Assembly: GCA_046290215.1 (NCBI GenBank)
Contig: JBKAGC010000001.1
Span: 2,936 to 66,935, forward strand
DNA length: 64,000 nt
Reading direction: 5' to 3'
From: Pseudomonadales bacterium
Lineage (GTDB): Bacteria > Pseudomonadota > Gammaproteobacteria > Pseudomonadales > Azotimanducaceae
This document shows positions 11,679-35,600 of this stretch, piece by piece. A program made the translations under genes and the position numbers. The notes beneath the pieces are model-generated. The model was given only the letters and a program-made list of their open reading frames with translations, had not been told where the DNA came from and made no database searches. Every line of letters begins with the position of its first letter. Position 1 is the stretch's first letter.

Positions 11679-11764
11679 GTCACTGACTGCCCTTGTTTGC
11701 CGCTTAATAACTCAATCTCAAGCCGGTGATCTGAATGACGTAAATTCGTCACCGGCAGTATTGA

Positions 11765-11791
11765 GTAAAGACGGAAATCGGGCATTGTCAA
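11765..11791 (-). promoter_or_regulatory. sigma70-type promoter candidate for fleQ
   Basis: The minus strand has TTGACA, a 16-nt spacer, then TTTACT, about 80 nt upstream of the fleQ ATG. Confidence 0.35.
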
Positions 11792-11817
11792 ATCAATGAC
11801 GATAAAAAATTTAATTC

Positions 11818-11852
11818 GTCAGTTTTTTGTCTTCTTGCTGGACAAAACTGAC
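11818..11852 (-). terminator. stem-loop just after the fliT-like gene (possible terminator or attenuator)
   Basis: GTCAGTTTTGTC / GACAAAA(AA)CTGAC arms with a 9-nt loop. A T-run lies a few nt further on. Confidence 0.4.
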
Positions 11853-11863
11853 ATTTTGGGCTT

Positions 11864-12190: not shown

Positions 12191-12579
12191 CGCGCTTCAA
12201 CCTCATCCTTGATGCCATCCCAACCTTCTTTGATGGTCTTTACCAGACCAATCACTTCATCAATGATGTCCGTGTCATTGGCCACGCCCGCGGCAAACAC
12301 GCGGCGGGTCATATAAAGATAGAGGCGATCCAGGTTTTCTGCAATTTCACCACCACGTTCAGCGTCCAGGGCATCTTGCAATGCACCGATAATAGTGATG
12401 GCAGAGCCCAGCGCACGGGACTTACCCTCATAATCCTTGCGACCGATAAAGCCCTTGGCAGTGGCCAGACGACCAATCAAACCGTCGAACATCATGGTAA
12501 TTAGCTGATGTGGACTGGCGTCCATGACACTGGTTTGCACATTCATTTGTTGGTATTGCTTGGCGCCTGATCCGTACAT
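12187..12579 (-). CDS. fliS: flagellin-specific chaperone FliS
   Basis: 130 aa. The sequence (...ASPHQLITMMFDGL...LYLYMTRRV...) is typical of FliS. Confidence 0.9.
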   Translation of the reverse strand: MYGSGAKQYQQMNVQTSVMDASPHQLITMMFDGLIGRLATAKGFIGRKDYEGKSRALGSAITIIGALQDALDAERGGEIAENLDRLYLYMTRRVFAAGVANDTDIIDEVIGLVKTIKEGWDGIKDEVEAR

Positions 12580-12663
12580 GAGTCGCTGTCCTTTTTCGTA
12601 ATGCCCACTACAACCTGCAGGAGTCTGTTTGGCTCATCGACTCTACTGCGGTGACTAAATAAG

Positions 12664-12691
12664 TTGACGGCTGCTGGTGAAATTTCTTTAG
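12664..12691 (-). promoter_or_regulatory. sigma28 (FliA) promoter candidate for fliS
   Basis: The minus strand reads cTAAAg-N14-GCCGTCAA. The consensus is TAAA-N15-GCCGATAA. Confidence 0.55.
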
Positions 12692-12724
12692 ACAAAATAT
12701 TTTTTTAAAGATGCTTTCAAAGGT

Positions 12725-12739
12725 TGGCCCGCCTTTTGC
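12725..12739 (+). promoter_or_regulatory. sigma54 promoter candidate for the methyltransferase-hydrolase-GGDEF unit
   Basis: TGGCCCgccttTTGC fits GG-N10-GC. It lies about 45 nt upstream of the ATG at 12783. Confidence 0.5.
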
Positions 12740-12782
12740 TTTTTAGTGACCTACCGAATGAACCGGCAATGACGGCTAACTC

Positions 12783-14879
12783 ATGGACAATCTAAAACGA
12801 CAGTCAGAACCGAAGCAGCAAGCGAAGACCCAGATCCCGCTCGGGGTCAAGCGCAAGATCAACAAGCTGCTAGAAGAGGCAAGTTTTGCCTATGACAGTA
12901 CTTACAACGAACCGGGTGCAGATCAGAGCAGAATTCACAAGCTCAGAGGTCGAGCCAGGTCATTGGCCAATCGTGCCCTGGCACGACAACCGGACAATAT
13001 TGACGCTTTAAACTTGTTGGGGCGCATTGCCCTGGACGATGGCGACCTGAGCCGGGCTGGCAAGATCCTCGATCAAGCTTTAAGTTTCGAGCCAGATGCC
13101 ATTAGCCTGAACTATTCACGGGGTCATGTTTACCTGGCGAGTCAAAACTACGCTGCAGCTGAACAATTGTTTGCCCGGGTTGAACAACAAGCACCGGGCG
13201 CTACTCGTGCCAAGGCATCGCTAGCCTTTACCCGGACCAAACAAGGTGCCTGGGTGGAAGCGTTTGCCGACTACCGCGACTTAATCAAACACGATCAAAG
13301 CGACCCTCATATAAAAAACAAACTATTTGAATGTTTACGCCACATCAAAGCTGATTACTATGCACCCGAGTTAGAGAATGAGATCGTCACCTACTTAAGC
13401 TTTGAGGATGTTGATCATAACGAGCTATCAAATTTTGCCGCGTCGCTGCTCATTCATAAGTACGATTTGATTGGTGGGAACTCACCACTAGATCCGCAGC
13501 AGCTCTCTAACGACAAGTTCTTAAATCTGGCTTTGCGCCGCTGTCAGTTTCGCAACCCTGTGGTGGAGGAGTTTTTAACCGCTTGCCGACAGTGCATCTT
13601 GCAAGAATCCATCGACCAGCAGCGCATCGACAGTCGGTTTATGGAGTTTCTTGTGAGCATCTCTTTGCAGTGCATAAACAACGAGTTCGTTTATGCCGTG
13701 TCGTTGACGGAAGAGAAGGTGATTCATGAGCTGCGGAACATGGTCCAGGAAACCGTGCGCAGCCACGACTGGCAAACCATGGAGGTGGAATATCCACTGT
13801 TGTTGCTGAGCATGTATTCCCTGCTGCATCACAATAGCTTCCGCGATCATCTATTGCGTAAGCCGCTCTCTGCCTGGTCCAGTGAGATGCGTCCTGTGAT
13901 TGAGCCGCACTTATACGAGCCACAAAAAGAGCGTGAAATTGAACGACGAATCGAAACCCTCGGTGAAATACATCACCCAGTTTCGAAAGCCGTGGCCCAG
14001 CAGTATGAAGAGAATCCATACCCCCGTTGGCGCAAGTTAGCCTTTGCGACGCCAACCGACTATGCCCAGGCATTAAGTGCTGAACTGTTGGGATTTACAC
14101 CACCCTCGTTTCTCCACAACCAGACTATTCGTGTGTTGATTGCAGGCTGCGGCACCGGCCGCCACGCTCTGCAAGTCGCCAAGCACTTTCGCAATGTTGA
14201 AGTCACGGCAATTGATCTGTCACGCGCAAGTTTGGCTTATGGCATTAAGCAAGCCAGAGCGCTAAAGGTGGACAACATTGAGTTCTTCCAGGCTGATCTA
14301 CTGAATCTGCCAGCCACACCGAAGTATCACATCATCGAGTCATCCGGTGTTTTGCATCACATGCAAGAGCCAATTAAAGGCTGGCAGGCACTAACGAAAC
14401 TGTTGGAACCTGGCGGCTTAATGAAGGTAAGCCTCTATAGCGAGCGAGCCAGACGGATCGTCACCACGGCACGGCAAATCATTGCTGAGAACAAAATGGA
14501 CGCCATTGACGAGCATATTCGTATATTCCGCCAGGCAATTCTTGACGGTCAGATTAGCGGGGACTTTGGGCCAATCATCCAATCCAATGATTTTTACAAT
14601 CTCAGCGGAACCAGGGATTTGTTGTTCAACGTCCAGGAGCATCTGTTTTCACCGCTTGCGATCCAGGCATGTGTAAACACCGTTGGCTTAAAGTTCCTGG
14701 GTTTTGTCCATTTGCCTTATGACGTGAAACAGGTCTTCGACAAAAACTTCCCCAATGACCCAAGGCGCATCAATCTTGAGAACTGGGACAAGTTCGAAGA
14801 AGCCGCGCCAGATGTATTTGGCAACATGTATCAGTTTTACTGTCAGTTGCAATCAGACAATATCGCCAGACTGGGATAG
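12783..14879 (+). CDS. TPR-repeat protein fused to a class I SAM-dependent methyltransferase
   Basis: 698 aa. The N-terminus is TPR-like. SAM motif I is VLIAGCGTGRH, followed by IESSGVLHHM. It is a clear paralog of the 27419..29224 product. Confidence 0.8.
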   Translation: MDNLKRQSEPKQQAKTQIPLGVKRKINKLLEEASFAYDSTYNEPGADQSRIHKLRGRARSLANRALARQPDNIDALNLLGRIALDDGDLSRAGKILDQALSFEPDAISLNYSRGHVYLASQNYAAAEQLFARVEQQAPGATRAKASLAFTRTKQGAWVEAFADYRDLIKHDQSDPHIKNKLFECLRHIKADYYAPELENEIVTYLSFEDVDHNELSNFAASLLIHKYDLIGGNSPLDPQQLSNDKFLNLALRRCQFRNPVVEEFLTACRQCILQESIDQQRIDSRFMEFLVSISLQCINNEFVYAVSLTEEKVIHELRNMVQETVRSHDWQTMEVEYPLLLLSMYSLLHHNSFRDHLLRKPLSAWSSEMRPVIEPHLYEPQKEREIERRIETLGEIHHPVSKAVAQQYEENPYPRWRKLAFATPTDYAQALSAELLGFTPPSFLHNQTIRVLIAGCGTGRHALQVAKHFRNVEVTAIDLSRASLAYGIKQARALKVDNIEFFQADLLNLPATPKYHIIESSGVLHHMQEPIKGWQALTKLLEPGGLMKVSLYSERARRIVTTARQIIAENKMDAIDEHIRIFRQAILDGQISGDFGPIIQSNDFYNLSGTRDLLFNVQEHLFSPLAIQACVNTVGLKFLGFVHLPYDVKQVFDKNFPNDPRRINLENWDKFEEAAPDVFGNMYQFYCQLQSDNIARLG

Positions 14880-14918
14880 GTTCGGTACACTCTGCTCTGA
14901 ACCGGAGCAGAGTGTCCT

Positions 14919-15886
14919 ATGTTTACCACTTTGATTGTCATCCTGGTGGTCTTCGCCATCTTTAAGTTTGCGCCACGGCCAAAACTTGACGCCACGCCTC
15001 GCACCACCCAGGTCCCCAACATTGCCCTGTCACAACTGCCGAACTGGCTGGAATCCCAGGAGGGCCGTGTATCACGCTTAATTGACGGCAATGCGGCGCA
15101 TATTGAATGGGCCAACCCTGACAACCCACAACAAACCGAACTGAGTTTTTTATATCTACACGGCTTTTCTGCCACCTGGCAGGAAACCGCCCCTCTTACC
15201 AGCCGATTAGCAGCCGAACGAGGTGCTAACGTGGTCCACGGCCGTCTTGCCGGTCATGGTGAAGGTAGTGACGGTATGCTGACACCAGCTGAACACTGGC
15301 TGCAAAGTGTTACGGACCACTTCGACATTGCCACCCGGGTCGGCAAGAAGGTAGTTGTGGTAGCCACGTCCACTGGCTGTACGCTGACCACTTATCTAGT
15401 CAATCAGCCGGCACTAAGAGACAAGATCCATGCCTGTATTTTTCTTTCGCCGAATTTTCGCGTTCGCAGCCCGTTTGGTTTTTTACTCACCTGGCCATTT
15501 TCCAGCAAGTGGGTACACCTGATTCTTGGCCGCGAACACAAATGGGAGCCCATTTCCGAACAACAGGCTCAAGCCTGGACACACCAGTACTCCACCCTGG
15601 CATTAATTGAAATGCAAAAGACTGTGGACTTTGCAGCGCGACTGGATTACGGCAGCTTTAGTACGCCGTTAGCCGTGATGTATATGCAAAACGACACCAC
15701 GATTTACCCCCTGCGGCGATTGATGTGTTTAACCGCTGGGGTGCCAGAAGCAAAACCTTGATCAGGGTAGAACCGAACGGCGAGGCGGAAGAGCATGTAT
15801 TTGTCGGTGACATCGTCGCGCCCGATCGCCTGGACTGGTGTTTGGCAAGATTAAATCAATTTCTTGATGATCTAGCTCGTGATTGA
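14919..15886 (+). pseudogene. alpha/beta-hydrolase (lipase/esterase-like) with a frameshift at the C5 run 15707-15711
   Basis: The ORF 14919..15761 has the nucleophile elbow VVATSTGC. The protein-like continuation (AAIDVFNRWGARSKTLIRVEPNGEAEEHVFVGDIVAPDRLDWCLARLNQFLDDLARD*) is in another frame. It ends at 15886 in a GTGA overlap with the next gene. Confidence 0.65.
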
Positions 15887-17090
15887 ACGCATCGGCCAAA
15901 GTCTGTTTTTGCCAACGGTATTGTTTGGCTTTGCCTTTTTTGCTGCCGGACAGGAGCACAGACTACCTGCTGACGCTCGCTTGCTCCTCGGCTATTTGCC
16001 CTATGTCAGTTTACTGTTGGTGGCGGTCATCGCCAGCGCTTTTAATCGCGGCCGGTCATTAATGGCCGCGAGTTTTGGCTTGCTGGTGTTACTTGCCGAT
16101 CAATATTCTGAGCTGGCCTTGTTACCTGCCCTAATGCTGGCTGTGATCCCATTTAATGTTGCGCTACTCGCCTGGCTCCCAGAACGTGGCGCGTTAACGG
16201 CCGGTGGCATGACGCGAATCATTCTTCTGGTAGGCCAAATACTCGGTTTGTTTTATCTGGCGGATAGCTACGAGGCAGTCTTGAAGGCATGGCTCGAATG
16301 GCCTCTGTTATCGACCTGGCCGGAGATCTTTAGCCACTCACAAACTGCTGCCTTAATCGCCTTAGTCGCACTACTGATTAGCTTCGCTGCCAGTCATTTT
16401 AAGGCGGCGCCAATTAATCAATCACTGTTTGGTGCCAATGTTGGTTTCGTCGCCGTGCTGTTTCTCACCTTGCCAGCAGCAACCGAGGACGCCTTCTTGT
16501 TCACAGTTGCGTTGATGCTCGCCATTGGCTTGCTGCGGGACTACTACAATATGGCGTATCGGGATGAGCTCACGGGATTACCACAAAGACGTGCCTTAAA
16601 CGAAAGTATGACCTCCTTAGGGGGACGTTACTGTATCGCCATGCTCGACGTTGACCACTTCAAAAAATTTAATGATACCCACGGTCACGATGTGGGTGAT
16701 CAGGTACTGCAACTAGTGGCCAGCCAAATCAGGAAGGTGCAAGGAGGCGGCAAGGCGTATCGCTACGGCGGTGAAGAGTTTACCGTGGTGTTTAACAACA
16801 AAGCCGTGGATGATGCAGTGTACTTTCTTGATCAAGTGAGAAAGAACATCGAAGACTACGAAATGGTGATTCGCAACCAGGAACGTAAGCCCAATCAAGA
16901 GGACGACAAAGGCGGCAAGAAGTCCCGCAAACGCGGCTCGTACCGAAACGCCGAGAAGAAAGTCTCTGTCACCATCAGCATCGGTGTTTGTGAACGCAGC
17001 CGCGGCGAGCAACCGGACCAGGTTCTCAAAAAAGCCGATGAAGCCCTCTATCGCGCCAAAAAAGGCGGCCGCAATCAAGTAGCCACCTAG
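15879..17090 (+). CDS. membrane-anchored diguanylate cyclase (GGDEF domain, GGEEF active site)
   Basis: 403 aa. About 6 predicted TM helices are followed by a GGDEF domain (DVDHFKKFND...RYGGEEF). No RxxD I-site is present (RKVQ instead). A Lys-rich insert (KGGKKSRKRGS) sits in the domain. Confidence 0.85.
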   Translation: MIERIGQSLFLPTVLFGFAFFAAGQEHRLPADARLLLGYLPYVSLLLVAVIASAFNRGRSLMAASFGLLVLLADQYSELALLPALMLAVIPFNVALLAWLPERGALTAGGMTRIILLVGQILGLFYLADSYEAVLKAWLEWPLLSTWPEIFSHSQTAALIALVALLISFAASHFKAAPINQSLFGANVGFVAVLFLTLPAATEDAFLFTVALMLAIGLLRDYYNMAYRDELTGLPQRRALNESMTSLGGRYCIAMLDVDHFKKFNDTHGHDVGDQVLQLVASQIRKVQGGGKAYRYGGEEFTVVFNNKAVDDAVYFLDQVRKNIEDYEMVIRNQERKPNQEDDKGGKKSRKRGSYRNAEKKVSVTISIGVCERSRGEQPDQVLKKADEALYRAKKGGRNQVAT

Positions 17091-17211
17091 GGATACCTGG
17101 GGTCAGGATACCTGGGGTCAGGACCAAGTGCCAGGTCCAAATTGATACCGGGGCCGGACCAAGTCAGCTTGATTCAATGGCTGGTGACGAATTATTTTGC
17201 TGACCCCAATG
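17091..17211. repeat. composite REP-like element between the convergent GGDEF gene and fliD
   Basis: It contains a duplication (gatacctggggtcag x2), the core GGGGTCAGGACCAAGTGCCAGGTCC, a second degenerate core, and an inverted CTGACCCCAATG end. Confidence 0.8.
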
Positions 17212-20190: not shown

Positions 20191-20586
20191 TTACACTAAA
20201 GCGCTAAACAAAAGCAGTGGTTCTTCGTTATTCAATTTCTGTGCCAGACTCAAGGTTACCTCCTCGGGTATCTGACGAATCACTTCGTTCGACTGGCTAT
20301 CGATCACCGTAATCACCGATCGCCCGCTGTCCTCGTCAAGCGAGAACCTTAGGTCACGCTGCACAGATTGAATGTAGTCATTGAGTTGCGCCACTGCCTG
20401 CGCCACCTCTTGTCTACTCTCATCAGCTATTGCTGAAGTCTTCGCTGCGACATCCTTTGCCTCAGCTAGCGGCAATTTATTGCCACTTGAAACCACGGGA
20501 TTAGTACTCGCCTCCGTTCGTTCTCCACCCCGCGTCTCAGTACGCTGCCCAGCATTCGCTGCGCTTTGTGGATTAATGATAGTCAT
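20191..20586 (-). CDS. flaG: FlaG family protein
   Basis: 131 aa. The FlaG signature is present (...LRFSLDEDSGRSVITVIDSQSNEVIRQIPEE...). It lies between the flagellin and fliD. Confidence 0.85.
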   Translation of the reverse strand: MTIINPQSAANAGQRTETRGGERTEASTNPVVSSGNKLPLAEAKDVAAKTSAIADESRQEVAQAVAQLNDYIQSVQRDLRFSLDEDSGRSVITVIDSQSNEVIRQIPEEVTLSLAQKLNNEEPLLLFSALV

Positions 20587-20701: not shown

Positions 20702-23700
20702 TTACTGTAGTAGTGATAGAACCTGCTGAGGAGCAGCATTAGCCTGAGCGAGAATCGAGATACCAGCCTGCTGCAGTACCTGAGTTCGAGACAACTCGGC
20801 CGTTTCAGCGGCGAAGTCAGCGTCAAGAATTCGAGAGTTTGCAGCCTGCAGGTTCTCAACCGAAATCGACAGGTTATCGATGGTTGACTGCAAGCGGTTC
20901 TGAATCGCACCTAAGTTCGCTCGTTCGGATGATACCGAAGACAAAGCGTTATCAAGAGCGTCCAGGGCCGAAAGTGCACCGTCCACTGTAGAGATATCAA
21001 TCTCATTCAGGAACTGACCGCTATCTGCGCCGCCGTAAGTACCGGCTTTAATACCGAGACCTTCGAGACCACCGAAGCCGTCTTCACCCGTCGCACCGTT
21101 TGTACCAGCGGCCACAGTGAACTCGCTAGAAGATGACAAGCGGATGGTAGAAGAAGTGGTCGCTGCGACATCGGCGTAGCTTACGCCTTCTGCAGAGAAG
21201 TCAGCTTCTGCAATACCTTTGACACTAGAATCCAGACCAATGTTCAGACCGGTGAAGTTAGTGCCTAGAGTATCGATCGCCACAGATACGTTACGACCAT
21301 CCTCGGCAGTCAGCGTGATACCGCCACCGTTATCAGTTGCAACAACACCTGTTTGACCAGCAATCTGGTTGATCGCACTGATGGCGTTTGCGCGGTTAGT
21401 TTCTTTATCAGCACCCAGGGACAATTGACCCGCTGAGATACCGTTAATGTAAACCTCACCAGCATCGCCGTCGGCAACTCGATCCGTGTTGGCAGTACCA
21501 CCGCTAACCACAGTGGCGTTCACAGTCGCTGTGACACCTGTTGTTTCAGTTGAGCGGTTAATCGCAGCAGCGATCGCAATACCACTAGCGGCCTTGTTAG
21601 AGCTGTTGGCCAACTCATTAGAGGCTGTATCGTCAGAAGTACGTGAAGCCGCGATACTCACACCGTTGATGCGCAGGTCACCGTCGAGCAGGCTACGAAT
21701 GGTTTGAGTTTCATTTCCGTTCGCACCAGCCTGGGTGTTGATCACGCCGGCAGAAGCACTACCGTTGCCGTCGAAGCCCAGATCTGCGGCCGCGTTACCT
21801 GTGACAGCAACCACGTTGCCTTCACTGGCTTGAGTCACGTCGTTATCAGTGATGGTGATCACACCGTCTTCTGACAAGGTCGCAGTAGCGTTAGTCAGCT
21901 TGCTGTTTAACTCATCAACGATACCTTCGCGGTCTGTGTAGCTACCTTCCAGTGTAATCGTCTCGTCACCGCCTTGGAGGCCAGTGATGGTGAGCGTATT
22001 GTTTTGTGCTGGCTGATCACGACCGGTATCAGTGACACTAGTACCATTCACATTGGTTGTGATGTTGGTGTCAGAACCAGAGGCAGAGAAAGACAGCGTG
22101 TTGTAAGGCGTGGCATTACCATCACCAAGACCTAAAGCGTCAAGACCGCCACCTGCACTACCTTCAGTGAAGTTATCGATAGTGAAGGATACTCCGGCTC
22201 CAGCGTCGTTACCGGCGGTGAAGACCAGGAAGCCGTCGCTATCGAGGCTAGCAACAATATCGTTAGCATCATCAGTCACTGAATCCAGTGCTGTTTGGAT
22301 GTTAGCGATCAAAGCATCGTTGTTACCTGCTGCTGCAGTATCCAGGGTAACTGTCCCGGAAACTGGCGCTGAACCTGAACCATCATCGAAAGTGATGTCG
22401 AAGGTCACAGCTGCGTTTGCCGCATTGAAGTTGAAGGTATTATCAATCGCGGTGTCAGTGGCTTCTTTAATGGAAGCTTGTGGACCGGCGGCAGTGAAGT
22501 TTGTTGCCGTCACAGTACCTGTGTCAGCAATCTCCAGGCTGCTTGTGGTCCCAGCAGTATCAACAATCTCAATGGATGCATTGGCGTCGGTCTTGGTGTT
22601 GCTAAAGACCAGTTCACCGCTGTTGTTGACAGATACCAGAATGTCACCAGCACTGTAGCCGTTGACGCCACCACCGTAAGTGTTAGCTGCATCAGCTGCT
22701 GCGAAAGCTGCATCCAAACGAGTTTGAATATCCTGCACCAACTGGTTAGCTGTAGCGTTAGCCACACCACCACCAGCGTCCGCGACAGTGATAAAGTCAC
22801 CACCGTTGAAGGAAATATCAAAGCTGTAACCCGCGCCAGCGCCGTTTGACAGGTCAATCCCGGTTAGACCATCACCTCCAGCTGTGCTGGCAGTAGCGGC
22901 AAGGCCCACATCCTGAGCAATCTCAGGTCCGTAAGCGGCCTCGGTACCAGTTACATTCAAGGCAGCAAGGGCGTCAGCACTACCCACAAAGTTACCCACT
23001 GTGAGGTCAATATCTTCGCCTGTTGCACTGGTCTCGAATACCAGGTTGTTGTCCTGGTCGATAGAAGCAGTGACATTGGTGCCCAATGCAGACGCTGCAA
23101 TCTTGTCATTCACTTCGCTCAAGAAAGCTGCATCAGCATCATAATCAGAGCCTGTTGCAGTGAATGAGCTTGTGGTGGCAACACCAAGACCAGTCAAGCT
23201 ACCTGCAGTCTCAGATGCAAAACCAGACAGCTCGAACGACACGTCGCTGCCGCTATCGGCACTGGTGATCACAATGTTGTCATCAACAGTGTTGTAGGAA
23301 GCAATCAAGCTCTGGCTACCTAATGCGGTATCAAGAGAAGTCTGCAAGTTAGCCAGGAAAGCATCCATGTTAGCGGCCGCTGCAGTATTCAAGGTAGCAA
23401 CCGCTTCAGTAGTGACACCATCCGCTGTGTAAGACACGTTGAATGTTACCGCTTCGTTGTTACCGTTGAAGGATGTAGTTTCAGTTAAGGCACCACCGCT
23501 GAATGTTACTCGAGCAGCAGCATCGCCCTGGAACGTGCTGGAAGTTACTTCACCAGTCACACCAACTGTGTAGGCTGCGCCTTCACCTGTGGTTACGCTA
23601 GCGATCTGACCGTCGTTCGCACCGTTACCACCGTCAGCATCAATACCCAGCGTGGCTTCACCGGCTGTAGTTGCTGTGGTCAATACAATATTGTTACTAC

Positions 23701-25243
23701 TATCAATGCTAACTTTCACGTCGCCTGCTGTGTAAGCATCAGCGGCCGAGAAACCCACGTTAGCGGCAGCAAAAGCCGTATCAAGAGCGGTTTGTAAGTC
23801 AGAAACCAGACCCGCACCGGTAGTTACGTTACCAGCATTAGCAACAGTTGCTGTCACGCCGTTGTAAGTCAGGTCAAAGCTGATGTCACCTGCGTCTACC
23901 TGAGCAAATGCGCCTGTACCATCAACCGCAGAACCTGCACCAAACGTTGTCACATTATCACCATCGAGTGCGGTGCCCATGTCCAGGACAAGCGACGTAC
24001 CGCGAGGGCTGGCATCTGTATCCAGAGTAATGGTGTCGTTGGTGATAGTACCGTCGTTGTTCAAAGAGATGTCGAAAGAAACGTTGTTTCGATCAACCAG
24101 TGAACCATCGTCTCCGTAGAGGAAGTTAGTCACTGTACCGTCAAAATCAAACTCAAAGTCTGGGGCAGAACCTTCAGCTAGAGTTACTTTCGCAGTTTCA
24201 GTACCGCCAGCACCTGTGGCAACTACGCCAAGGGCACTAGACAGACCCAGAGCGTCTGCACCGGCGTTACCAGTAACAGCAGTGATCTCAAGACTCTTCT
24301 GAGAACCCTTAGGACCAGTGGTTAATGTCAGTTCATTGCTTTCAAAGCTAACCAACACTTCACCAGCGCCAAACGCGCCGTCTACCGCTGTTTGTAACGC
24401 TGCACGTAATTGCGCTTGAGTCGCATCGGTCACACCTGCAGAAGCTGCAGTGGAAACTGTCAAAGCTTCACCATTGTCGAGAGACAACTGGAACTCAACA
24501 CCACCAGCCTGATCCAGGCTAACACCAGTTGATGCAGTAGTTGTGTTTAAGCCAGCGCCGGTGCTCAGAACCGCCGAAGAAGCTTCGCCAGTTTCAAAAG
24601 CAACGGTGGACTCAGAGGCAGAACCCGCAGTAAAGCTGTTACCAGATGTATAGTAAACCGCTGCAAGGTTTTGCTCGCCAACAGTTGTAGCGTTTGCACC
24701 ATTGGTTGATACAGTACCTGTACCATCGGCGTCGTCTAGAGAGTAACCCAGGACAGAAGCAGCTTCTGCATTAGAAACTGCACCAGAACCACCGATGCCA
24801 GAAATTTCTAACACGCCGGCTTCAGCAGTATCGCGGCTGAAGACCAGATTGTTGTCAGCGTCCAAAGAAGCTGTGACACCAATGGTGGTGCTGGCATTTG
24901 TGATTGCAGTGTTGATGGCATCAACCAGTTCTTGTCCTGTAGACAAAGAGTTGATTGAGCTGCCGGCGCCCACTTCAACCGTCACAGTTTGCGCTGCCTG
25001 AGTTGCTGCACCAGAAACACTGATATCAAAGTTAATGCGGTTAGTGGCGCTAAGTACGTCGCCGCCGAGGGCTGAAGTATCAACTGCCGAACCACCTGTG
25101 GTCGAAGCCGCAACCGCGGCAACTACTGTGTCAGCGGAGATGACGTCTGCACCTTCACCAGTAGCACCTGATGTAATGCCAAGCGCACTAGCCACAGCAG
25201 CAGCATCAGTTGTACCGTTAGTACCGAAGTTTGAAACGGTCAA
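20702..25243 (-). CDS. fliC: giant flagellin, C-terminal 1513-codon fragment (no N-terminal D0/D1 domain)
   Basis: It ends with the canonical flagellin C-terminal domain (...ANLGAIQNRLQSTIDNLSISVENLQAANSRILDADFAAETAELSRTQVLQQAGISILAQANAAPQQVLSLLQ). The rest is a Cys- and Trp-free, T/S/G/A/D-rich repetitive region with IN motifs. Confidence 0.85.
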   Translation of the reverse strand: MTVSNFGTNGTTDAAAVASALGITSGATGEGADVISADTVVAAVAASTTGGSAVDTSALGGDVLSATNRINFDISVSGAATQAAQTVTVEVGAGSSINSLSTGQELVDAINTAITNASTTIGVTASLDADNNLVFSRDTAEAGVLEISGIGGSGAVSNAEAASVLGYSLDDADGTGTVSTNGANATTVGEQNLAAVYYTSGNSFTAGSASESTVAFETGEASSAVLSTGAGLNTTTASTGVSLDQAGGVEFQLSLDNGEALTVSTAASAGVTDATQAQLRAALQTAVDGAFGAGEVLVSFESNELTLTTGPKGSQKSLEITAVTGNAGADALGLSSALGVVATGAGGTETAKVTLAEGSAPDFEFDFDGTVTNFLYGDDGSLVDRNNVSFDISLNNDGTITNDTITLDTDASPRGTSLVLDMGTALDGDNVTTFGAGSAVDGTGAFAQVDAGDISFDLTYNGVTATVANAGNVTTGAGLVSDLQTALDTAFAAANVGFSAADAYTAGDVKVSIDSSNNIVLTTATTAGEATLGIDADGGNGANDGQIASVTTGEGAAYTVGVTGEVTSSTFQGDAAARVTFSGGALTETTSFNGNNEAVTFNVSYTADGVTTEAVATLNTAAAANMDAFLANLQTSLDTALGSQSLIASYNTVDDNIVITSADSGSDVSFELSGFASETAGSLTGLGVATTSSFTATGSDYDADAAFLSEVNDKIAASALGTNVTASIDQDNNLVFETSATGEDIDLTVGNFVGSADALAALNVTGTEAAYGPEIAQDVGLAATASTAGGDGLTGIDLSNGAGAGYSFDISFNGGDFITVADAGGGVANATANQLVQDIQTRLDAAFAAADAANTYGGGVNGYSAGDILVSVNNSGELVFSNTKTDANASIEIVDTAGTTSSLEIADTGTVTATNFTAAGPQASIKEATDTAIDNTFNFNAANAAVTFDITFDDGSGSAPVSGTVTLDTAAAGNNDALIANIQTALDSVTDDANDIVASLDSDGFLVFTAGNDAGAGVSFTIDNFTEGSAGGGLDALGLGDGNATPYNTLSFSASGSDTNITTNVNGTSVTDTGRDQPAQNNTLTITGLQGGDETITLEGSYTDREGIVDELNSKLTNATATLSEDGVITITDNDVTQASEGNVVAVTGNAAADLGFDGNGSASAGVINTQAGANGNETQTIRSLLDGDLRINGVSIAASRTSDDTASNELANSSNKAASGIAIAAAINRSTETTGVTATVNATVVSGGTANTDRVADGDAGEVYINGISAGQLSLGADKETNRANAISAINQIAGQTGVVATDNGGGITLTAEDGRNVSVAIDTLGTNFTGLNIGLDSSVKGIAEADFSAEGVSYADVAATTSSTIRLSSSSEFTVAAGTNGATGEDGFGGLEGLGIKAGTYGGADSGQFLNEIDISTVDGALSALDALDNALSSVSSERANLGAIQNRLQSTIDNLSISVENLQAANSRILDADFAAETAELSRTQVLQQAGISILAQANAAPQQVLSLLQ

Positions 25244-25354
25244 AGCAGTTCTGCAGAGTCACGAGAATCTGCAGGTTACCGTCATGTGACTTGCAGTGAC
25301 CGCAAGGGAATCACCAACAGAGCGTTGATGGCATCCGCCAGATCCTGAACGCTG

Positions 25355-26668
25355 TCACCGGTGGTTCTGAAACAGAAACCGTACCTGGTTCTTCCAGAAG
25401 TACCGCGGTGCGGATCGTAATGAACTCAAGGCGCCAGTTATCACCCAGAGTACCCACGCCCTGACTGTTACAGTGGCCTGCACTGCTGGTGTGTCAAAAG
25501 GCGCGCCATCTTCAGAGCAAGGCGCAACCGCTGCAGTATTAGCTGTGTAAGTGCCAGCAACCAGACCAGAGTTAGCAATGTCACCTGTGCTCTCAGAGAT
25601 CACAATGGCAGTACCGGAAGTTGTGGCGCTCAAGGTGTAACCACCAGAAGTCGTTTCCTGGGAGGTCAAACCGGTAGAAGCCGCAGAGAGATCACCGGAG
25701 CTAAATTCTAGTGTGATGTTTCGGCCATCGGCAGCTTCAAGGTTTACACCGCCAAACCGCGTTCCGGTATCAACAGCAATAACACCTGTTTCACCGCTTC
25801 GGGCGTTAATCGCAGAGACGATACCAGATCGGTCCGCCGCTTCGTCCACATCACCTGTGGCAATAGCGATTTCAACACCATTCAATGTGATAGAACCTGA
25901 AGTCGCGTTTGCACCACCGGATGCTTCGTTTTGCACACTACCTGCGGCAATGTTGGTCAAAACTTCAGCTTGTACACCTGATTGCTCAGTAGCACGGTTG
26001 ATGGCGGCGACTTTAGAGATCGCACTAGCAGGGGCGTTAGCAAAAGATGAAGTATCATCAGATGCTACAGATGGGCCGATAACAGCGCCATTGATTACAA
26101 GGTCACCGTTCGCGAGACCATTGCTTGAACCAATAGCACTGACACCAGCTGTTCGACCGCCACCTAAGTTAGAGGCTGTTAATTCAGCGATGCCGAAGCT
26201 CACTGTTTCACCAGCGTTTGCACCGACCTGGAAGGAAGCTGCAAAGTTACCGTCGAGCAAGTTAGTACCGTTAAAGTCGGTTTGCTCACCGGTTCGGGTA
26301 ATTTCAGAAATTAGCTGCTGTGCTTCCGCGTTCAATGCTTCACGGTCCACATCAGAGTTTGTCGCGTTAGAAGACTGCAAAGCCAGTTCACGTAGACGTT
26401 GCAATGAACTTGAAATCGAGTCCAAAGCACCTTCAGCAGTCTGTGCGAGGGAAATACCGTCCCCTGCGTTTCGAATCGCCACAGACAAACCTCTGATCTG
26501 TGAAGAGAAACGAGTGGAGATAGCAAGACCGGCCGCATCATCCTTCGCGCTGTTAATTCTGAGACCTGACGACAATCGCTCAAGCGAAGTCCGGTTAGCG
26601 GACTGCGATGAGTTTAGATTACGTTGAGCCGTCAGAGACGCAATATTCGTGTTAATAATTTGAGGCAT
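25355..26668 (-). CDS. fliC: giant flagellin, N-terminal fragment (no C-terminal domain; last ~60 codons out of character)
   Basis: It starts MPQIINTNIASLTAQRNLNSSQSANRTSLERLSSGLRINSAKDDAAGLAI..., the canonical flagellin N-terminal domain. It is in the same reading frame as 20702..25243 (coordinates congruent mod 3). Confidence 0.85.
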   Translation of the reverse strand: MPQIINTNIASLTAQRNLNSSQSANRTSLERLSSGLRINSAKDDAAGLAISTRFSSQIRGLSVAIRNAGDGISLAQTAEGALDSISSSLQRLRELALQSSNATNSDVDREALNAEAQQLISEITRTGEQTDFNGTNLLDGNFAASFQVGANAGETVSFGIAELTASNLGGGRTAGVSAIGSSNGLANGDLVINGAVIGPSVASDDTSSFANAPASAISKVAAINRATEQSGVQAEVLTNIAAGSVQNEASGGANATSGSITLNGVEIAIATGDVDEAADRSGIVSAINARSGETGVIAVDTGTRFGGVNLEAADGRNITLEFSSGDLSAASTGLTSQETTSGGYTLSATTSGTAIVISESTGDIANSGLVAGTYTANTAAVAPCSEDGAPFDTPAVQATVTVRAWVLWVITGALSSLRSAPRYFWKNQVRFLFQNHR

Positions 26669-27418: not shown

Positions 27419-29224
27419 ATGAGTGCAACCAGCTTAACCCGCGAGCAGCAGGTCACCAGCGCGACGGAAATCATGAAAGCGTCTGAGGCCATGCAAAACA
27501 AACAGTATTCTGAGGTCATCAGTACCCTCACACCCATGCTGCAAGCCATGGATGTCGACGCACCGCGGACTAACGAGATCTTTGGTTTGCTTATGGTGGC
27601 CGATGCCCAGCGCTTTAGTGGTTTGATCGATGACGCCTACAAGAATTACGTGGTTGCCAGCGAGATTTCACCGGAGCACAAAGCGCAAATCGAGCCGCAT
27701 ATTCTAAAGTGTTTGCCAGGCATGAAGACCACGCCTGATGCACCCGTTTTCGCTGAGCACTTGAGCTTGTACTTATCAAAAGCGGACTTGCACAGCCGAG
27801 CTATTGATCCACACATCACCAACACACTGATTCGGCGCTATGATCTCAAAAACGACGACGCCGCGGTGGACCTGGCTACGGTCATCACCGACGGTTTCTT
27901 CCTGACCGCGCTTAGGCACGCCATGTTGGGCGACCCGTTCGTTGAAAAGTTTGTCTCGGATATTCGCCGTGAAATCCTTTATCTCACTGTTGAGAATGGT
28001 TTATCGAGCAATCTATCGCCCATCGTCTTGGCCCTGGCTGAGCACGCCGAATTGGTGGAATATGTGTATGACATCTCTGAGGATGAGCGCGTGCTTCTGT
28101 TGGGCTTAAAAACCCTGATGGAGACACATAGCAGCGTGTCTGACGATGCTTCTGAGTTACTCGAACCTCTGCTCATGTACCTGATGTACGAGCCGATTAC
28201 TCAGCTCCGTCTGCAAGCCAAACTCAACGCCGACAAGATCCGGCGCTGGCCTGACCCGGTTAAACAGTTGTTCAAGCTGACCCTATTAAATCCCCAGGAA
28301 GAGCGCAAACTGGCGAACGACTTACCGTGCCTCAAGCCGATTAGCGCTGAGATTTCCCAGCTGGTCATGGGTCAATATCAAGAGAACCCATATCCAAGAT
28401 GGCGCGACTTATTCACCACTGATAAACCCCTGCCATATATCAGGATTTATCCCGATCTCGCCCAGCGGATTACCAAGCCGAAGAAATTCGAACGGTCATT
28501 GAAGTGCCTGGTGGCAGGTTGTGGCACCGGAAAACATCCCATCTGGCTTGCCGCCAGCACGAAAAACATGGCGGTGACCGCAATGGATTTAAGTAAGCCT
28601 AGTCTGGCCTACGCCAAACGGCAGGCCATTGAACTTGGCGTGGCCGACAAAATCCAGTTTATGCAAGGCGATATCCTGGACCTTGAACAGCTCGACACAA
28701 ACTTTGATGTCATTGAGTGCTCTGGAGTTTTGCATCATATGGAAGATCCAGAACTGGGTTTAAGTAAGCTGGTCACGCGCTTAAAAACCCACGGGCTATT
28801 GAGAATTGGCCTGTATAGCCGAATCGCCCGTGACGCGATTGGCGTCAACGATATTCGCGCCAGTGAGCAAGCTGCCACGCTGGAAGAAATTCGCGCCCAG
28901 CGCAGTCGCATACTCGCTGCCGGTACCAGCCCGATTCTGCGCTCCAGGGACTTTTTCACCATGTCTGAATGCAGGGATTTAATTAATCATGTGCAAGAGC
29001 ATCAGTTCGAGCTGCCGCAAATCAAGGCATTGTTAGAGCGCTACAATCTGGAGTTTCTTGGTTTTACGGGGATCAACGAGGAGATCATTAGGGAATATCG
29101 CAAGCAATTTGCATACGACCCAGAAGGTCTATCTCTGGACAACTGGCATCAATTTGAGCAGGAAAATCCGTTTATCTTTAAAGCGATGTACCAGTTTCAC
29201 TGCCAGAAGCGGCCCACGCACTAA
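27419..29224 (+). CDS. helical-repeat protein fused to a class I SAM-dependent methyltransferase (paralog of 12783..14879)
   Basis: 601 aa. Blocks shared with the paralog are QYQENPYPRWR, LVAGCGTGKH, ECSGVLHHMEDP, GLYSRIAR, VQEHQF and MYQFHCQ. Confidence 0.8.
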   Translation: MSATSLTREQQVTSATEIMKASEAMQNKQYSEVISTLTPMLQAMDVDAPRTNEIFGLLMVADAQRFSGLIDDAYKNYVVASEISPEHKAQIEPHILKCLPGMKTTPDAPVFAEHLSLYLSKADLHSRAIDPHITNTLIRRYDLKNDDAAVDLATVITDGFFLTALRHAMLGDPFVEKFVSDIRREILYLTVENGLSSNLSPIVLALAEHAELVEYVYDISEDERVLLLGLKTLMETHSSVSDDASELLEPLLMYLMYEPITQLRLQAKLNADKIRRWPDPVKQLFKLTLLNPQEERKLANDLPCLKPISAEISQLVMGQYQENPYPRWRDLFTTDKPLPYIRIYPDLAQRITKPKKFERSLKCLVAGCGTGKHPIWLAASTKNMAVTAMDLSKPSLAYAKRQAIELGVADKIQFMQGDILDLEQLDTNFDVIECSGVLHHMEDPELGLSKLVTRLKTHGLLRIGLYSRIARDAIGVNDIRASEQAATLEEIRAQRSRILAAGTSPILRSRDFFTMSECRDLINHVQEHQFELPQIKALLERYNLEFLGFTGINEEIIREYRKQFAYDPEGLSLDNWHQFEQENPFIFKAMYQFHCQKRPTH

Positions 29225-30521: not shown

Positions 30522-31247
30522 ATGAGCGCCAGCGACTTCTTAGTTGAACGCACCAACCTCGCAAATACCACTAGCCGTGACGCAGACATTCCTGAATTGC
30601 AATCGGGTCAGGCCCTAATTCGGGTTGATCGTTACGCTTTAACAGCCAATAACATTACCTACGGCGTGGCCGGTGACATGATTGGATACTGGAACTTTTT
30701 CCCCGCTGAAGATGGCCTTGGCCGCATCCCCGTGTGGGGCGTGGGTACGGTGGAAAAAAGCGAATGTGACGGCGTCGCAGTGGGCAGCCGCTATTACGGC
30801 TACTACCCAATGTCCTCTTACCTGCTAGTAGAACCACAACGGGTTAACGAGCGGGGCATGTCTGATGGCGCTGAACACCGCGCCAGCTTACCGCCGGTTT
30901 ACAATAGCTATAGCTTAATGACAGCAGAAAATGGTTTTGCACCCGAGTATGATAATCATCAGATGATTTATCGGCCGCTCTTTACCACTGGCTTCGTGTT
31001 GGACGACTACTTTCTCGATAACGACTTTTTTGGCGCAAAACAAATCATCTTATCCAGTGCCAGCAGCAAAACCGCTTTCTCTATGGCTTACCTGCTCAAA
31101 GACCGCGACGTTCATGTGATTGGCCTAACCTCGCCCGGTAACGTGGGTTTTGTGCAGAGTCTAGGCCTCTATGATGAGGTGGTAACTTACGACGCTGTCA
31201 CGGACATCGCTGCCAGTGTGCCCAGCGCCTATGTGGATATGTCTTAA
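30522..31247 (+). CDS. DUF2855-like protein, apparently C-terminally truncated
   Basis: 241 aa. The N-terminal pattern ...ALTANNITYGVAGDMIGYWNFFPAE..GRIPVWG...YYGYYPMS... matches my memory of the DUF2855 family, whose members I recall as about 350-370 aa. No ORF continues downstream. Confidence 0.5.
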   Translation: MSASDFLVERTNLANTTSRDADIPELQSGQALIRVDRYALTANNITYGVAGDMIGYWNFFPAEDGLGRIPVWGVGTVEKSECDGVAVGSRYYGYYPMSSYLLVEPQRVNERGMSDGAEHRASLPPVYNSYSLMTAENGFAPEYDNHQMIYRPLFTTGFVLDDYFLDNDFFGAKQIILSSASSKTAFSMAYLLKDRDVHVIGLTSPGNVGFVQSLGLYDEVVTYDAVTDIAASVPSAYVDMS

Positions 31248-31706
31248 CCAGTGTTCTATACAATCACCTTAACGCAACATGTTGCAAACTGCGGGGTTGT
31301 ACACAAACGAATCACGGGATGGCGCTGACGATCTGCCCGGGGCACCATGTTTTCCCCCGGCCAATTCAAGCAATGCCAGTACCAGAGCAATACAGGCGAA
31401 ACCTTATCAGTTGCCGATCCTTGGGTGAAAATCATTGAAAGCAGCGGTGGACTCACGCCGCAAGCTGGACGTCACAGACAAGCCGTTTGGTGACAGGGCA
31501 AGCTGAACAAGGCGTGGCTTTAAAACTGGCTGCTTCCAGCACGAGTTCCAGGCTGGCGCCTCAGCACCACATTTGCCGACAAACCAGATTGTTCATGCAG
31601 ACTGGGTACTCTCCAGGCGTGGAGCGGCACCCTTTACTCTGCCTGGTGGGCGTGTATCGAGGTTATTGATATCGCGCGACCAGGCTCCACCTGCTCACGG
31701 CCCTGA

Positions 31707-32645
31707 TCACTCACGAAAGCCCTCGACCATTCGGCCCAGGGTGGTAAGCACACTTTGCTGGGATGACGACTCGATGATAAAGCTATCGCCGGGGTCTGGC
31801 GTGCCAGTAATCCGCACGCCAATGCCTTCAAAGCGGATCTGATTACCAGACACAAAGCGTTCATTTTGCAAACCTTGAATAACCCGGTCATCCGAGGCGC
31901 GCCGTACCGTGTAATTTAGGCCGGGCGGTTCAATCGCGTCCAGTGGCTCAAATTCAATGTAAGCATCCTCCGGAAAAAACGCATCGAATTCTGCCTGATC
32001 CAAAACCTGCCCCACTGTAATATCAGCAGGTGGGACAGCTGTATTCCGCGGATTGTTCATGGTGACAAAACTCTGGGCATCAGAAGGGATTTCTTCAAAC
32101 AAAGCCTTACCACTGTCCCTTGAGGTAACAAAGGTTGTCGCGCCTATCTGTACCAGTCGCTCGCCTTCATCTCCTTGAAACTTATAACCGCCACCACCAC
32201 TGTCCACAAAAGGTTGGGTTGAGCCCTTGTAACCGGCAAAAATAAACTCACCATTGGAATCGCGACTGTTGAGTAGACCGAGCATTTCTTCAAGGCGAAT
32301 ATTCACTTCCTCCGCGAGAAAACCGCGGTCTTCCTGACTTAAAGAACCCGCACCGAGCTGGACAGCGATTTCCCTGACGCGCTGCAAGACATCACCAATT
32401 CCCGATAGCACCGAGTCCTCAAGGGACAATCGATTGGTCACCGAGGTAATATTACGTTGGTACTGTTCGCGGGCAGCAATTTCCTGATTAAGCTGCAAAA
32501 TCCGTGTGGCCGCCACAGGATCGTCCGAGGGTTTCAAAACCCGGCGACCACTGGAAATTTGCGCCTGGGTCTCATTGCCGGCATTACTTACTCGTTGGAT
32601 ATCAGCAATGCCGCGATTAAAGGTCTGAATCGTACTAATACGCAT
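31707..32645 (-). CDS. flgL: flagellar hook-filament junction protein FlgL, lacking its conserved C-terminal domain in this frame
   Basis: 312 aa. The N-terminus is canonical (MRISTIQTFNRGIADIQ...SSGRRVLKPSDDPVAATRIL). The ORF stops before the flagellin-like C-terminal helix region. Confidence 0.85.
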   Translation of the reverse strand: MRISTIQTFNRGIADIQRVSNAGNETQAQISSGRRVLKPSDDPVAATRILQLNQEIAAREQYQRNITSVTNRLSLEDSVLSGIGDVLQRVREIAVQLGAGSLSQEDRGFLAEEVNIRLEEMLGLLNSRDSNGEFIFAGYKGSTQPFVDSGGGGYKFQGDEGERLVQIGATTFVTSRDSGKALFEEIPSDAQSFVTMNNPRNTAVPPADITVGQVLDQAEFDAFFPEDAYIEFEPLDAIEPPGLNYTVRRASDDRVIQGLQNERFVSGNQIRFEGIGVRITGTPDPGDSFIIESSSQQSVLTTLGRMVEGFRE

Positions 32646-32650: not shown

Positions 32651-35600
32651 TTACCTAAAGGTTTGTATCAAGGTATCAAAGAGACTTCGGGCCACGGAGA
32701 TCACCTGGGCCGAGGCGTTATAGGCTAGTTCGTACTTGATCAAATCTGCTGCTTCTTCATCAAGACTCACCCCGGCAATGTTGTCGCGAAGTAACTGGGA
32801 TTGTTCTAAAAGGGCTTGACTGGCCTCGGCATTGATCTGGCTCTGGGCTGTTTTAGCGCCCACCAATTCCACCAATCGACCATAGGATTCCTGCATGTTG
32901 ACAGTATTGCCCTCGAGGATACGGGCAGTTTCAATGGCAGTAAGCGCCAGACCATTACGATTATCGGAGACACCATCGGCGTTAAACTCGACGACAAACT
33001 TATCCCCGGCATCCGCAATGCCATCCATTGTGACCTGGTAGCCAAGGTAGGTGCTAAAAGCTTCCGGTTCGGATTTAAATAGGTTCCCGGTCACCTGAGT
33101 TGCACTAGAAGACAAACTGACGCCATCTTCCATCACCACGTCCAGCACACCGCCAACCGTCACCTCATTACGAACGTCCGCACCTTGAACCTGTCCAGGG
33201 ACAAATCCCAGGGCCTGATTTAACGCCGGCGACACATCAACAATTTGTATCTGGGCGTCAGATCCTCGCTCTCGCGTGGTTAAACTAATCTGTCCTTGCA
33301 GATTCATACTGACGCGAATGTCACCGCCGGTAATGTTGGAAGAATCAATTTTGTTTTGAATCTCGCGGATCACATCAGACGACAATACCCGATTACCACT
33401 GAGGACGATCTCTTCAGCATTACCACCATTGACACTAATGCTGAAACGGTACGGTCCACCGTCATTAAAGTTAAACCCAGTGGAGATATCCGCAGTACCC
33501 GTGACTTCCGCCGGAATACTACCGCCTGCGCCGTTGATATTGAGTTCACCGCCGAATTGATCCGTCATCAGAAAGCCGTCACCCGCATCGCCCCGCACCG
33601 AGACGGTAATGTCTTCGCCGCTAGCGTTACTTAACGTCAGAGTTTCGCCATTACTGCGCGCGATGATGCCAGCCTCGGCAAAATCACTATTGGCCGTGAT
33701 TAGATCGGCGAGATAATTTGGTGACAGCAATTCCGGCTCATTCGGGTCCGTGGGCTGATTGACCTGTATGCCATTAATGCTGATGACCATGGCCAGGGCA
33801 TCGTCACTGCCGTTAACAAAGTTCGACAATTCAATTTCTGTGGCGGCTTTGGCGGTCACGCCGGTCAAGCCATTGAGGCTCTGGGCGATCGAAGCTGCCG
33901 ATTCCCCCTCAGTCACTTCCACGGCTGGTTGCACACTGACAATGCCAGTGACCGGGTCAACCGTGGTAATGGTCAGGGTTTCGTTCGCGTAACCATTGGT
34001 ACTGGTTTCAATAGGTGCCAGGGATACTGAATTGGGTAATCTGCCAGCCAACTCACCGTCACTTCTGACCGCGGTCTGGCCAATGGAATCTGGCAACATC
34101 TGGTTTTGAATACCTGGGGTAAAGCGCAAATTTCTTAAGGGCGGCACCAGATCCACGGGCTTGGCTGGATTGGTGTTGTCTAACACATCGTAGGTTTCCG
34201 GTGAGGTAAACACGATCACCAGCGGCGGTGCTAGCTCGCCAGGTGTAGAAAAAGCCGGCGTGGTCACGTCTACTGCCTGGGTAGAGAGTATTTTCGCCGA
34301 GCCATTATTGCCAAGGCTCGCTTGCGCGCTAATGGCTGATGCCACGGCCAGGCGTTCTGGACGTTCGATCTCTACCGCAATGTCACGACCACCATAACGA
34401 GTGGGCGCTACCAGGAACCGATCACCTTCCTGGATCGACCCGGTTTCCACATTGATGGTAAAACCTTCTGCTTCGATACTATCTGGCAGCGCTCCGGACA
34501 GCAGGCCTTTTTGGATCACCTCGCCATCTTCAGAGCGGGTTAAAACATAACGTTGTCCCCCAGGACCGGGAAAGGACAGCACGTAATCTGATTCGGTCAG
34601 TTGATTGGTGTCATCAATGGTGACACTGAGGCGAGTTTCGATCCCAGAGGTATTGTCTTTGTCGGGCAACACTCGTCCGCGCTGATTAGCTTCGGAATTG
34701 ATATCACCAAAGAACAAACCACCAAACAAACCGTCCAGATCCAAACCCAAAGCGTGTTGTTCATTAATTTTGTCAGCAATAGTGAGCGCCAGCCGACCAA
34801 CACTGTTGATGGTTTCATCGAGGATCTGATCTCGAAAATCTAAGATGCCACCTAGCCGACCACCACTAATCAGTGACGTAACGGTTTGTTGCACATCACC
34901 GCTGGTGAACGCGAGGTCATTGCGGAACGGGTCTGTCTCACCCGGCACAGCTTTGAGCTGGCTAGCGCGATCACCCACCACTAATCCCTGACCGCTACCA
35001 ATAAACACATCCACGGCATTGCGCTCTTTACCCACCACATTCACAGAGACCAGCTCCGATAATTGCCGCAGTAACTCGTCGCGGCGATCAAGCAAATCAT
35101 TGGGTTCTGAACCCTGGCCGCGACCAGATGCTGCGACAATGCTCTTGTTGAGATCGGCAATACCGCGCGCCAGACTGGTAATCTCCGCTGCCGTGGTATC
35201 TAACTGCTGATTTAAGGTGCTATTGTGCTGCTCGAGCCTGGATTGGATGGTGCTAAATCGCTGTACCAGGCCTTCTGCCTCACTTATGACCAACTGCCGG
35301 ATCGGCACTGATGTGGGATCATCGGCAGCGGCATTTAAGGAACCAAAAAAACTTTGTATTCCTGGTGCAAGACCAGTGGTGGCATCCGCCAGGAGGGAAT
35401 CAATCTGGTCCACGTTGTCTGTGAAGGTTTGCAACTCATGATAGACGCTGCTGTCCAGGCGTAATTGACCTACCGCAAACTCATCTACAACGCGGCGGAT
35501 ACTTTGCACCTCAACGCCAGTACCCGCAAAACCAGCACCTGAAAACTGCGGCGTGGTCGTACCTTGCACCACACTCTGGCGACTATAACCAGGCGAGTCG

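Follow-up and report, generated by a model that had tools for sequence, protein, structure and literature searches.

The question raised by this locus is whether two neighbouring flagellin-like open reading frames (ORFs) on the minus strand are the halves of one giant gene and, if so, whether the break between them belongs to the organism or to the assembly. The DNA analysed (the window) comprises 64,000 nucleotides (nt) of a contig from a Pseudomonadales bacterium of the Azotimanducaceae (GenBank assembly GCA_046290215.1, contig JBKAGC010000001.1, positions 2,936 to 66,935 of the forward strand). The two ORFs are very probably the halves of one real flagellin gene with a product of about 2,005 amino acids (aa), split by an artefact of sequencing or assembly, because of the indel map, the intact orthologues, the partial intact Illumina sequence from the same population, further errors in the contig and purifying selection on the gene.

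Two reading frames and the zone between them

As sequenced, the gene is represented by two ORFs.

25355..26668, minus strand: ORF1, the N-terminal half, 437 aa
20702..25243, minus strand: ORF2, the C-terminal half, 1513 aa

The only Pfam match of ORF1 is Flagellin_N (PF00669; residues 5-142, E=6e-44), and the only one of ORF2 is Flagellin_C (PF00700; residues 1427-1512, E=3e-25); a single polypeptide with both terminal domains is not found in the window as sequenced. The start coordinates of both ORFs are 1 mod 3, i.e., the frame is shared. An earlier note on this DNA had given these coordinates, the division of the terminal domains and the common frame, all of which were confirmed by the ORF map, the Pfam search and the mod-3 check. 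In a protein search, ORF2 was identical to NCBI entry MFN3235441.1 on the deposited 70,328-nt contig, which is named 'MAG: beta strand repeat-containing protein [Pseudomonadales bacterium]' (MAG, metagenome-assembled genome).

When one genome per species was scanned with ORF2 (1513 aa) as the query, two related loci were obtained from uncultured Pseudomonadales MAGs, L001 (flagellin ORF of 2,000 aa) and L002 (2,154 aa), both uninterrupted. An intact 2,005-aa flagellin (P0122) is encoded on the Joint Genome Institute contig L004 and belongs to the same 90% cluster as MFN3235441.1. Residues 1-401 of ORF1 are 94% identical to residues 1-407 of P0122, and residues 1-1513 of ORF2 are 92% identical to residues 493-2005, with zero gaps. 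The conceptually repaired protein, whose alignment to orthologues had been proposed as a check, matched 17 clusters of 1,963-2,041 aa with 100% query cover and 61-82% identity. These full-length clusters are labelled 'flagellin' in their sources and originate from MAGs of Pseudomonadales or Candidatus Azotimanducaceae. Both terminal domains are located on one polypeptide in all 17 clusters, in L001, in L002 and in P0122. The relatives returned by a metagenome scan were all intact, including L012 and L013 (single continuous alignments across the zone between the ORFs), and all at most 72% identical; no same-species copy was among them.

By comparison with these genes, the locus is divided as follows.

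20702..26668, minus strand: whole flagellin gene (fliC-type), 5,967 nt as sequenced, colinear with P0122/L004, L001 and L002
25466..26668, minus strand: 5' part in the true frame, codons 1-401, with Flagellin_N
25244..25542, minus strand: damaged zone with 12 deletion events and six net -1 frame shifts (indel map)
20702..25243, minus strand: 3' part in the true frame, codons ~493-2005, with Flagellin_C

The 5' part codes for the D0/D1 N-terminal helices and for a first region of the DE type, in which two IN-like motifs occur; it contains two in-frame deletions (at ~25519 and 25502), and its product can be aligned over residues 1-372 with Legionella/Pseudomonas-type flagellins of solved structure. 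Of the nine repeat modules, the damaged zone holds the first, the one with a Pfam Flagellin_IN match in P0122 (residues 426-486). The 3' part codes for the other eight modules, followed by the second region of the DE type and the D1/D0 helices of the C-terminus.

Between the two parts, flagellin-like peptides continue in changing frames: TTGDSVQDLADAINA (second frame, 25365..25321), VGDSLAVTAS (main frame, 25318..25289), HDGNLQILVTLQN (third frame, 25286..25248) and LTVSNFGTNG (main frame again, 25243..25214). These peptides had been quoted in the earlier note and were all recovered at the positions and in the frame alternation it gave. The hopping itself therefore stands, but the count does not, as there are six hops and not four. 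A frameshift-aware protein-to-DNA alignment against the three orthologues L001, L002 and P0122 placed -1 shifts near 25465, 25364, 25323, 25291, 25268 and 25248 (frame order 1>2>0>1>2>0>1), in addition to several in-frame losses, and resolved HDGNLQILVTLQN into HDGNLQ followed by SRDSAE in a different frame. Every frame segment of the damaged zone is 70-100% identical to the orthologue.

At the DNA level, the alignment of the 6-kb coding sequence with L004 (~82% identity) contains 12 gaps with a total of 51 nt, all of them on the window side and between 25253 and 25519, and no other indels. The indels are confined in the same way in comparison with L001 and L002, with 57 nt missing. The 5,967 nt present plus the 51 nt missing amount to 6,018 nt, which corresponds to 2,005 codons and a stop and is exactly the length of P0122. 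The giant size proposed earlier is thus upheld, whereas the proposed length of ~1,990 codons gives way to a true length of most likely 2,005 aa. Under a uniform model, the probability that 12 random indels in a gene of 5,967 nt all fall within 270 nt is ~1e-15. Because of this clustering and of the identity of each frame segment to the orthologue, the arrangement of indels and frame hops is not due to chance.

Composition follows the same boundary. Cys, Trp and His are absent from the 1513-aa ORF2 and also from the intact orthologues, whereas the 42-residue tail of ORF1 contains three Trp and one His, and its lone Cys is located at a deletion junction; the count bears out the observation, made before, that Cys and Trp occur in the upstream tail and nowhere in ORF2.

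The common frame, and a possible start codon at the beginning of each ORF, would fit separate expression as two proteins, or programmed recoding over the gap to yield a single one. Six consecutive -1 shifts would be required for the latter, all relatives have single ORFs, and the tail of ORF1 is out-of-frame garbage with Trp and His. Both flagellin terminal domains are needed for export and polymerisation, and the N-terminal fragment is devoid of Flagellin_C and the C-terminal fragment of Flagellin_N. This explanation is extremely improbable; programmed frameshifting and a split protein are ruled out by the six -1 shifts and by the essential terminal domain missing from each fragment.

Differences from L004 at the first, second and third codon positions number 100/57/651 in ORF2 and 30/16/142 in ORF1, and the codon changes in ORF2 comprise 588 synonymous and 116 non-synonymous ones. 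This third-position bias in both halves argues that both have evolved as coding sequence under strong purifying selection.

Sequence from the same population and the probable source of the damage

Four contigs of the Logan assembly of Sequence Read Archive run SRR22269038 were retrieved by exact-product look-up of neighbouring genes. They are Illumina contigs and cover the window as follows.

4562..17136: L007
17197..25288: L005
25543..27384: L011
27369..30514: L006

Together, they account for ~25.6 kb of the window with zero mismatches; the differences are indels only, located at 25245-25298 and at 15712. The flagellin gene is 100% identical to L011 over 25543..26668 and to L005 over 20702..25243. 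The Illumina contigs end at 25543 and restart at ~25298, and this short-read gap coincides with the damaged zone; no contig for 25299-25542 was found among the same-population contigs retrieved. The 5' end of L005 overlaps the last 50 nt of the damaged zone, where it reads CAAGTGTGGACACTGACGGTAACCTGCAGATTTCTCGTGACTCTGCAGAAACTGGTACTTTGACC and encodes the orthologue-like, in-frame SVDTDGNLQISRDSAETGTLTVSNF. Compared with L005 at 25245-25298, the window is short of GTGGA, T (TT instead of TTT), A (AA instead of AAA), G and TA, and has one extra A; L005 thus carries the intact version across five lesions of the window. Exact-product look-ups were unmatched for the 437-aa ORF, the 1513-aa ORF, the 1013-aa FlgK and three alternative starts of a FliT-like gene.

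The breaks in the Illumina contigs on either side of the damaged zone would also be expected if an intact and a deletion-laden allele coexisted in the culture, the MAG having taken the minor allele and the Illumina graph having broken at the bubble. Strains ~98.7-98.9% identical to the window do occur in three other runs (L008-L010), although these runs have no established link to the diatom culture from which the Illumina data originate. However, L005 passes five variant sites unbroken, and therefore deletion k-mers are absent or rare; a mechanism for clustered deletions would be needed here as much as for the decay of the gene considered below. A minority haplotype is accordingly regarded as very improbable.

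Two other lesions were found in the contig.

15706..15712, plus strand: homopolymer of C6 in the window, C7 in L007, L008 and L009 (Illumina assemblies, three runs)
31243..31735: second deletion-dense zone, with 19 window-only gaps (~186 nt) in comparison with L001 and none in the flanks

The C6-for-C7 error at 15712 shifts the frame of an alpha/beta-hydrolase gene (14919..15761, plus strand) that is intact in the Illumina contigs as an ORF of 322 aa, and it is of the same error class as the flagellin zone. When intact, this gene overlaps the start of the next gene (GGDEF). The second zone removes the 3' ends of two convergent genes, one for a DUF2855 protein (30522..31247, plus strand) and flgL (31707..32645, minus strand). 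The DUF2855 protein has 241 aa in the window and 356 aa in L001, and its Pfam profile stops at position 217 of 335. The window version of FlgL is reduced to 312 aa, compared with 414 aa in L001, and has lost the Flagellin_C domain that the L001 protein has. No same-population Illumina contig for 31243-31735 was retrieved.

A true and recent pseudogene, i.e., a burst of small deletions that inactivated the flagellin gene of this strain under relaxed selection for motility during more than eight years of co-culture with the diatom, would account for the presence of the lesions in the deposited contig, whose 1513-aa product is the NCBI protein. The truncation of flgL would likewise fit a loss of motility, and the long history of the culture is documented (PMC9872673). 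Yet all 12 deletions are packed into 270 nt, with the other 5.7 kb of the gene free of them, which is not the scatter of lesions expected of a pseudogene, and both halves show purifying instead of relaxed selection. To our knowledge, no mutational process yields such a pattern of clustered deletions. Over ~25.6 kb there is not one substitution relative to the Illumina contigs, of which L005 is intact across five lesions, and unrelated genes (the hydrolase and DUF2855 genes) carry the same type of lesion. Regarding the two alternatives of the earlier note, damage by assembly indels is therefore supported, whereas recent decay of the gene is disfavoured and considered improbable. The ALTERNATIVES weighed against assembly error are the true pseudogene, the coexisting minor haplotype, and programmed recoding or two functional fragments.

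The artefact reading is compatible with what is published on the sample. Run SRR22269038 was obtained from total DNA of a long-term diatom culture (Skeletonema tropicum; PMC9872673). This data set on the microbiome of the culture combines QitanTech nanopore reads (SRR22262228, above Q7) with Illumina reads of the same DNA; assembly was by Flye/Canu, and Pilon and NextPolish were used for polishing (PMC9872673). Judging from the sequence identity, the MAG was most likely built from the low-accuracy nanopore reads and polished with the Illumina reads. A raw, deletion-rich long-read consensus would survive the polishing wherever coverage by Illumina reads or their mapping had failed locally; polished stretches would match the short reads perfectly and unpolished ones would keep their deletions. 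One such unpolished patch (25244-25542) would lie in the flagellin gene, at its first repeat module.

The lesions resemble the residual indel errors of polished long-read assemblies in that deletions dominate, a homopolymer is undercalled (C7 as C6) and substitutions relative to the Illumina assembly are zero. They resemble them also in that they are located at gaps of the Illumina assembly, and the published pipeline is one of Flye/Canu followed by Pilon and NextPolish. They differ in their local density, which is unusually high, with 16-28% of the bases missing.

Four points weigh against the explanation by assembly error. It is solely through identity to the Illumina contigs that the contig is tied to the nanopore/Illumina project. 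Even for a noisy nanopore consensus, deletions of 7-9 nt and a loss of 16-28% of the bases are heavy. The breaks in the Illumina contigs could in principle reflect two real haplotypes that coexist. Finally, the central 245 nt (25299-25542) are without a retrieved same-population Illumina contig, and the nine indel events there are called erroneous only by way of orthologues at 72-82% nucleotide identity.

Two observations concern the Illumina contigs in general. The strains 98.7-98.9% identical to the window are represented over 11076-17092 in L008, L009 and L010 (runs SRR20015798, SRR20015795 and SRR20015794, respectively); therefore, the organism is not confined to one sample. The intergenic stretch ~17090-17200, between the GGDEF gene and fliD, contains short direct repeats (two copies of GGATACCTGGGGTCAG, together with related units, CTGACCCCAATGCTTG) and looks like a small repetitive intergenic element. 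Both L007 and L005 end within it, and the last 20 nt of L005 diverge from the window.

Architecture of the protein and its flagellar neighbourhood

From the N- to the C-terminus, the protein consists of D0/D1 helices, a first outer region of the Pseudomonas/Legionella type with two IN-like motifs, an insert of modules, a duplicated second outer region, and D1/D0 helices. Residues 105-374 of ORF1 match residues 1593-1895 of P0122 (31% identity, E=2e-27), and reciprocally residues 1101-1464 of ORF2 match residues 105-438 of P0122. Two duplicated outer (DE) regions are thus predicted from the alignments, and the symmetrical arrangement of IN motifs in the two fragments, pointed out earlier, is consistent with this internal duplication. 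The insert between the copies has a length of ~1,100-1,200 aa and was resolved by an iterated hidden Markov model into nine tandem modules of ~75-85 aa, spaced ~140-180 aa apart.

P0122 residues of the nine modules: 423-498, 562-641, 741-814, 880-944, 946-1027, 1091-1167, 1174-1244, 1299-1385, 1438-1517

An AlphaFold model of two modules has a strand-strand-helix-strand-strand-strand topology at modest confidence (pLDDT 59). A Foldseek search of this two-module model against the PDB gave no significant match (best E=0.06-0.14). The sub-threshold matches were to D2-D3 of FliD and to D2/D3 of Pseudomonas aeruginosa FliC, which is suggestive of a flagellar outer-domain fold for the modules, but not evidence.

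The flagellin gene is located within a flagellar gene cluster, near flaG, fliD and fliS/fliT. The cluster is otherwise intact and includes fliI, fliH, fliG, fliF, fliE, fleQ, regulators of the fleS/fleR type, fliS, fliT, fliD, flaG, flgK, flgJ, flgI and flgH. The 64-kb window contains no second flagellin gene, the only other protein with Flagellin_N being FlgL. The genes next to the flagellin gene are the following.

20191..20586, minus strand: flaG (Pfam FlaG, E=6e-21), directly downstream of the flagellin gene, an order shared by L004 and L005
17218..20046, minus strand: fliD, filament cap, 942 aa (Pfam FliD_N and FliD_C); exact product on Logan contig L005
26842..27327, plus strand: FliT-like gene, 161 aa from a GTG start (weak Pfam FliT match); exact product on Logan contig L011

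The FliT-like gene is divergent from the flagellin gene, and of its starts that were looked up, only the GTG start for 161 aa was matched. Another FliT-like gene (11864..12196, minus strand) adjoins fliS and gives a stronger match.

FlgK (1,013 aa; 32651..35692, minus strand) and FliD (942 aa) are roughly twice the usual size; the E. coli proteins have ~547 aa and ~468 aa, respectively. The orthologues in L001 and L002 are of similar size (FliD, 969 and 944 aa; FlgK, 1,011 and 1,001 aa), and both proteins may have been enlarged together with the giant flagellin. Two paralogous large methyltransferase genes flank fliD-flaG-fliC (12783..14879, plus strand, 698 aa; 27419..29224, plus strand, 601 aa). 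Their mutual identity is ~30-33%, as suggested by cross-alignments of orthologues; the 698-aa protein has TPR matches, and the pair is conserved in L001. The two are candidate flagellin-modifying enzymes. Upstream of flgH there is an ORF-poor stretch of ~0.9 kb (38386-39290), followed by a gene for an iron-type alcohol dehydrogenase; flgG and flgF are not adjacent to flgH, and 38386-39290 has no coding signal for a degraded flgG in any frame.

Comparison with known giant flagellins

Giant flagellins are an established category, and members of the present family are already annotated as 'flagellin' in public sources. A survey of UniProt in 2017 listed 92 proteins of more than 1,000 aa with the flagellin N-terminal domain (pf00669), headed by an entry of 2,628 aa that is assigned to the fungus Beauveria bassiana (PMC6248924). 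The largest bacterial entries were those of Desulfosporosinus youngiae (1,965 aa), Dethiosulfovibrio peptidovorans (1,943 aa) and Aminomonas paucivorans (1,932 aa) (S1 File, PMC6248924), and the largest gammaproteobacterial one had 1,381 aa (PMC6248924). Judged against this survey, the placing of a ~2,000-aa flagellin at the extreme end of the size range in the earlier note was fair. The ~2,005-aa family stands at the top of this range and is the largest gammaproteobacterial one that could be documented here.

What emerges is a coherent family of ~2,000-aa flagellins from marine Pseudomonadales, which comprises at least 17 clusters (90% level) and whose members are about twice the size of any flagellin with an examined filament. 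The deposited contig has a quality defect, flgL and two other genes being damaged like the flagellin gene; since the damage is very probably an artefact and common to several genes, the record should not be taken as a sign of lost motility. The carrier apparently lives in a diatom culture already kept in the laboratory and would therefore be accessible to experiments by electron microscopy and mass spectrometry.

The flagellins of Desulfosporosinus, Dethiosulfovibrio and Aminomonas are in the same size class of ~2,000 aa and, like the present one, are represented by sequence only, whereas they belong to other phyla (Firmicutes and Synergistetes). Convergent origins of giant flagellins have been argued for by Thomson et al. 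(PMC6248924). Regarding flagellins of ordinary size, residues 1-376 of the window protein align to D0, D1 and half of the outer domain of the P. aeruginosa B-type and Legionella-type flagellins (PDB 5wk5/5wk6, 8sug and 6b5b; E=1e-44 to 6e-60), which differ in having 484-566 aa and no insert of tandem modules.

Giant flagellins described in Oceanospirillales include Q1N2Y3 of Bermanella marisrubri, with 1,020 aa, and that of Oleibacter marinus, with 1,190 aa; their filaments have a width of at least 30 nm (Thomson et al. 2018, PMC6248924). By analogy with these, the ~2,005-aa protein should polymerise into an unusually thick filament. The balance of probability is slightly in favour of a more specific proposal, in which the protein would be the sole filament subunit of an uncultured, Azotimanducaceae-like clade of marine Pseudomonadales, and a multilayer outer sheath formed by its nine tandem IN-type modules would make the filament much thicker than the at least 30 nm of Bermanella.

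The present flagellin resembles those of Bermanella and Oleibacter in its marine gammaproteobacterial origin, in a length of more than 1,000 aa with conserved D0/D1 ends, in the arrangement of two duplicated outer regions around a central insert (the DE-DX-DE scheme, PMC6248924), and in being free of Cys, Trp and His and not accompanied by a second flagellin gene (here, within the window). It differs in that it is about twice as long and is known here from its sequence, with no filament seen for the family. The giants of Oleispira, Oceanobacter and Thalassolituus covered just 19-22% of the query in the protein search, and only its ends. The published DX insert is without internal repeats (PMC6248924), whereas the insert here, of ~1,100-1,200 aa, contains the nine tandem modules; from these alignments it appears not to be homologous to the insert of Oleibacter, Thalassolituus and Oleispira, and to be a different and larger insert in the same position.

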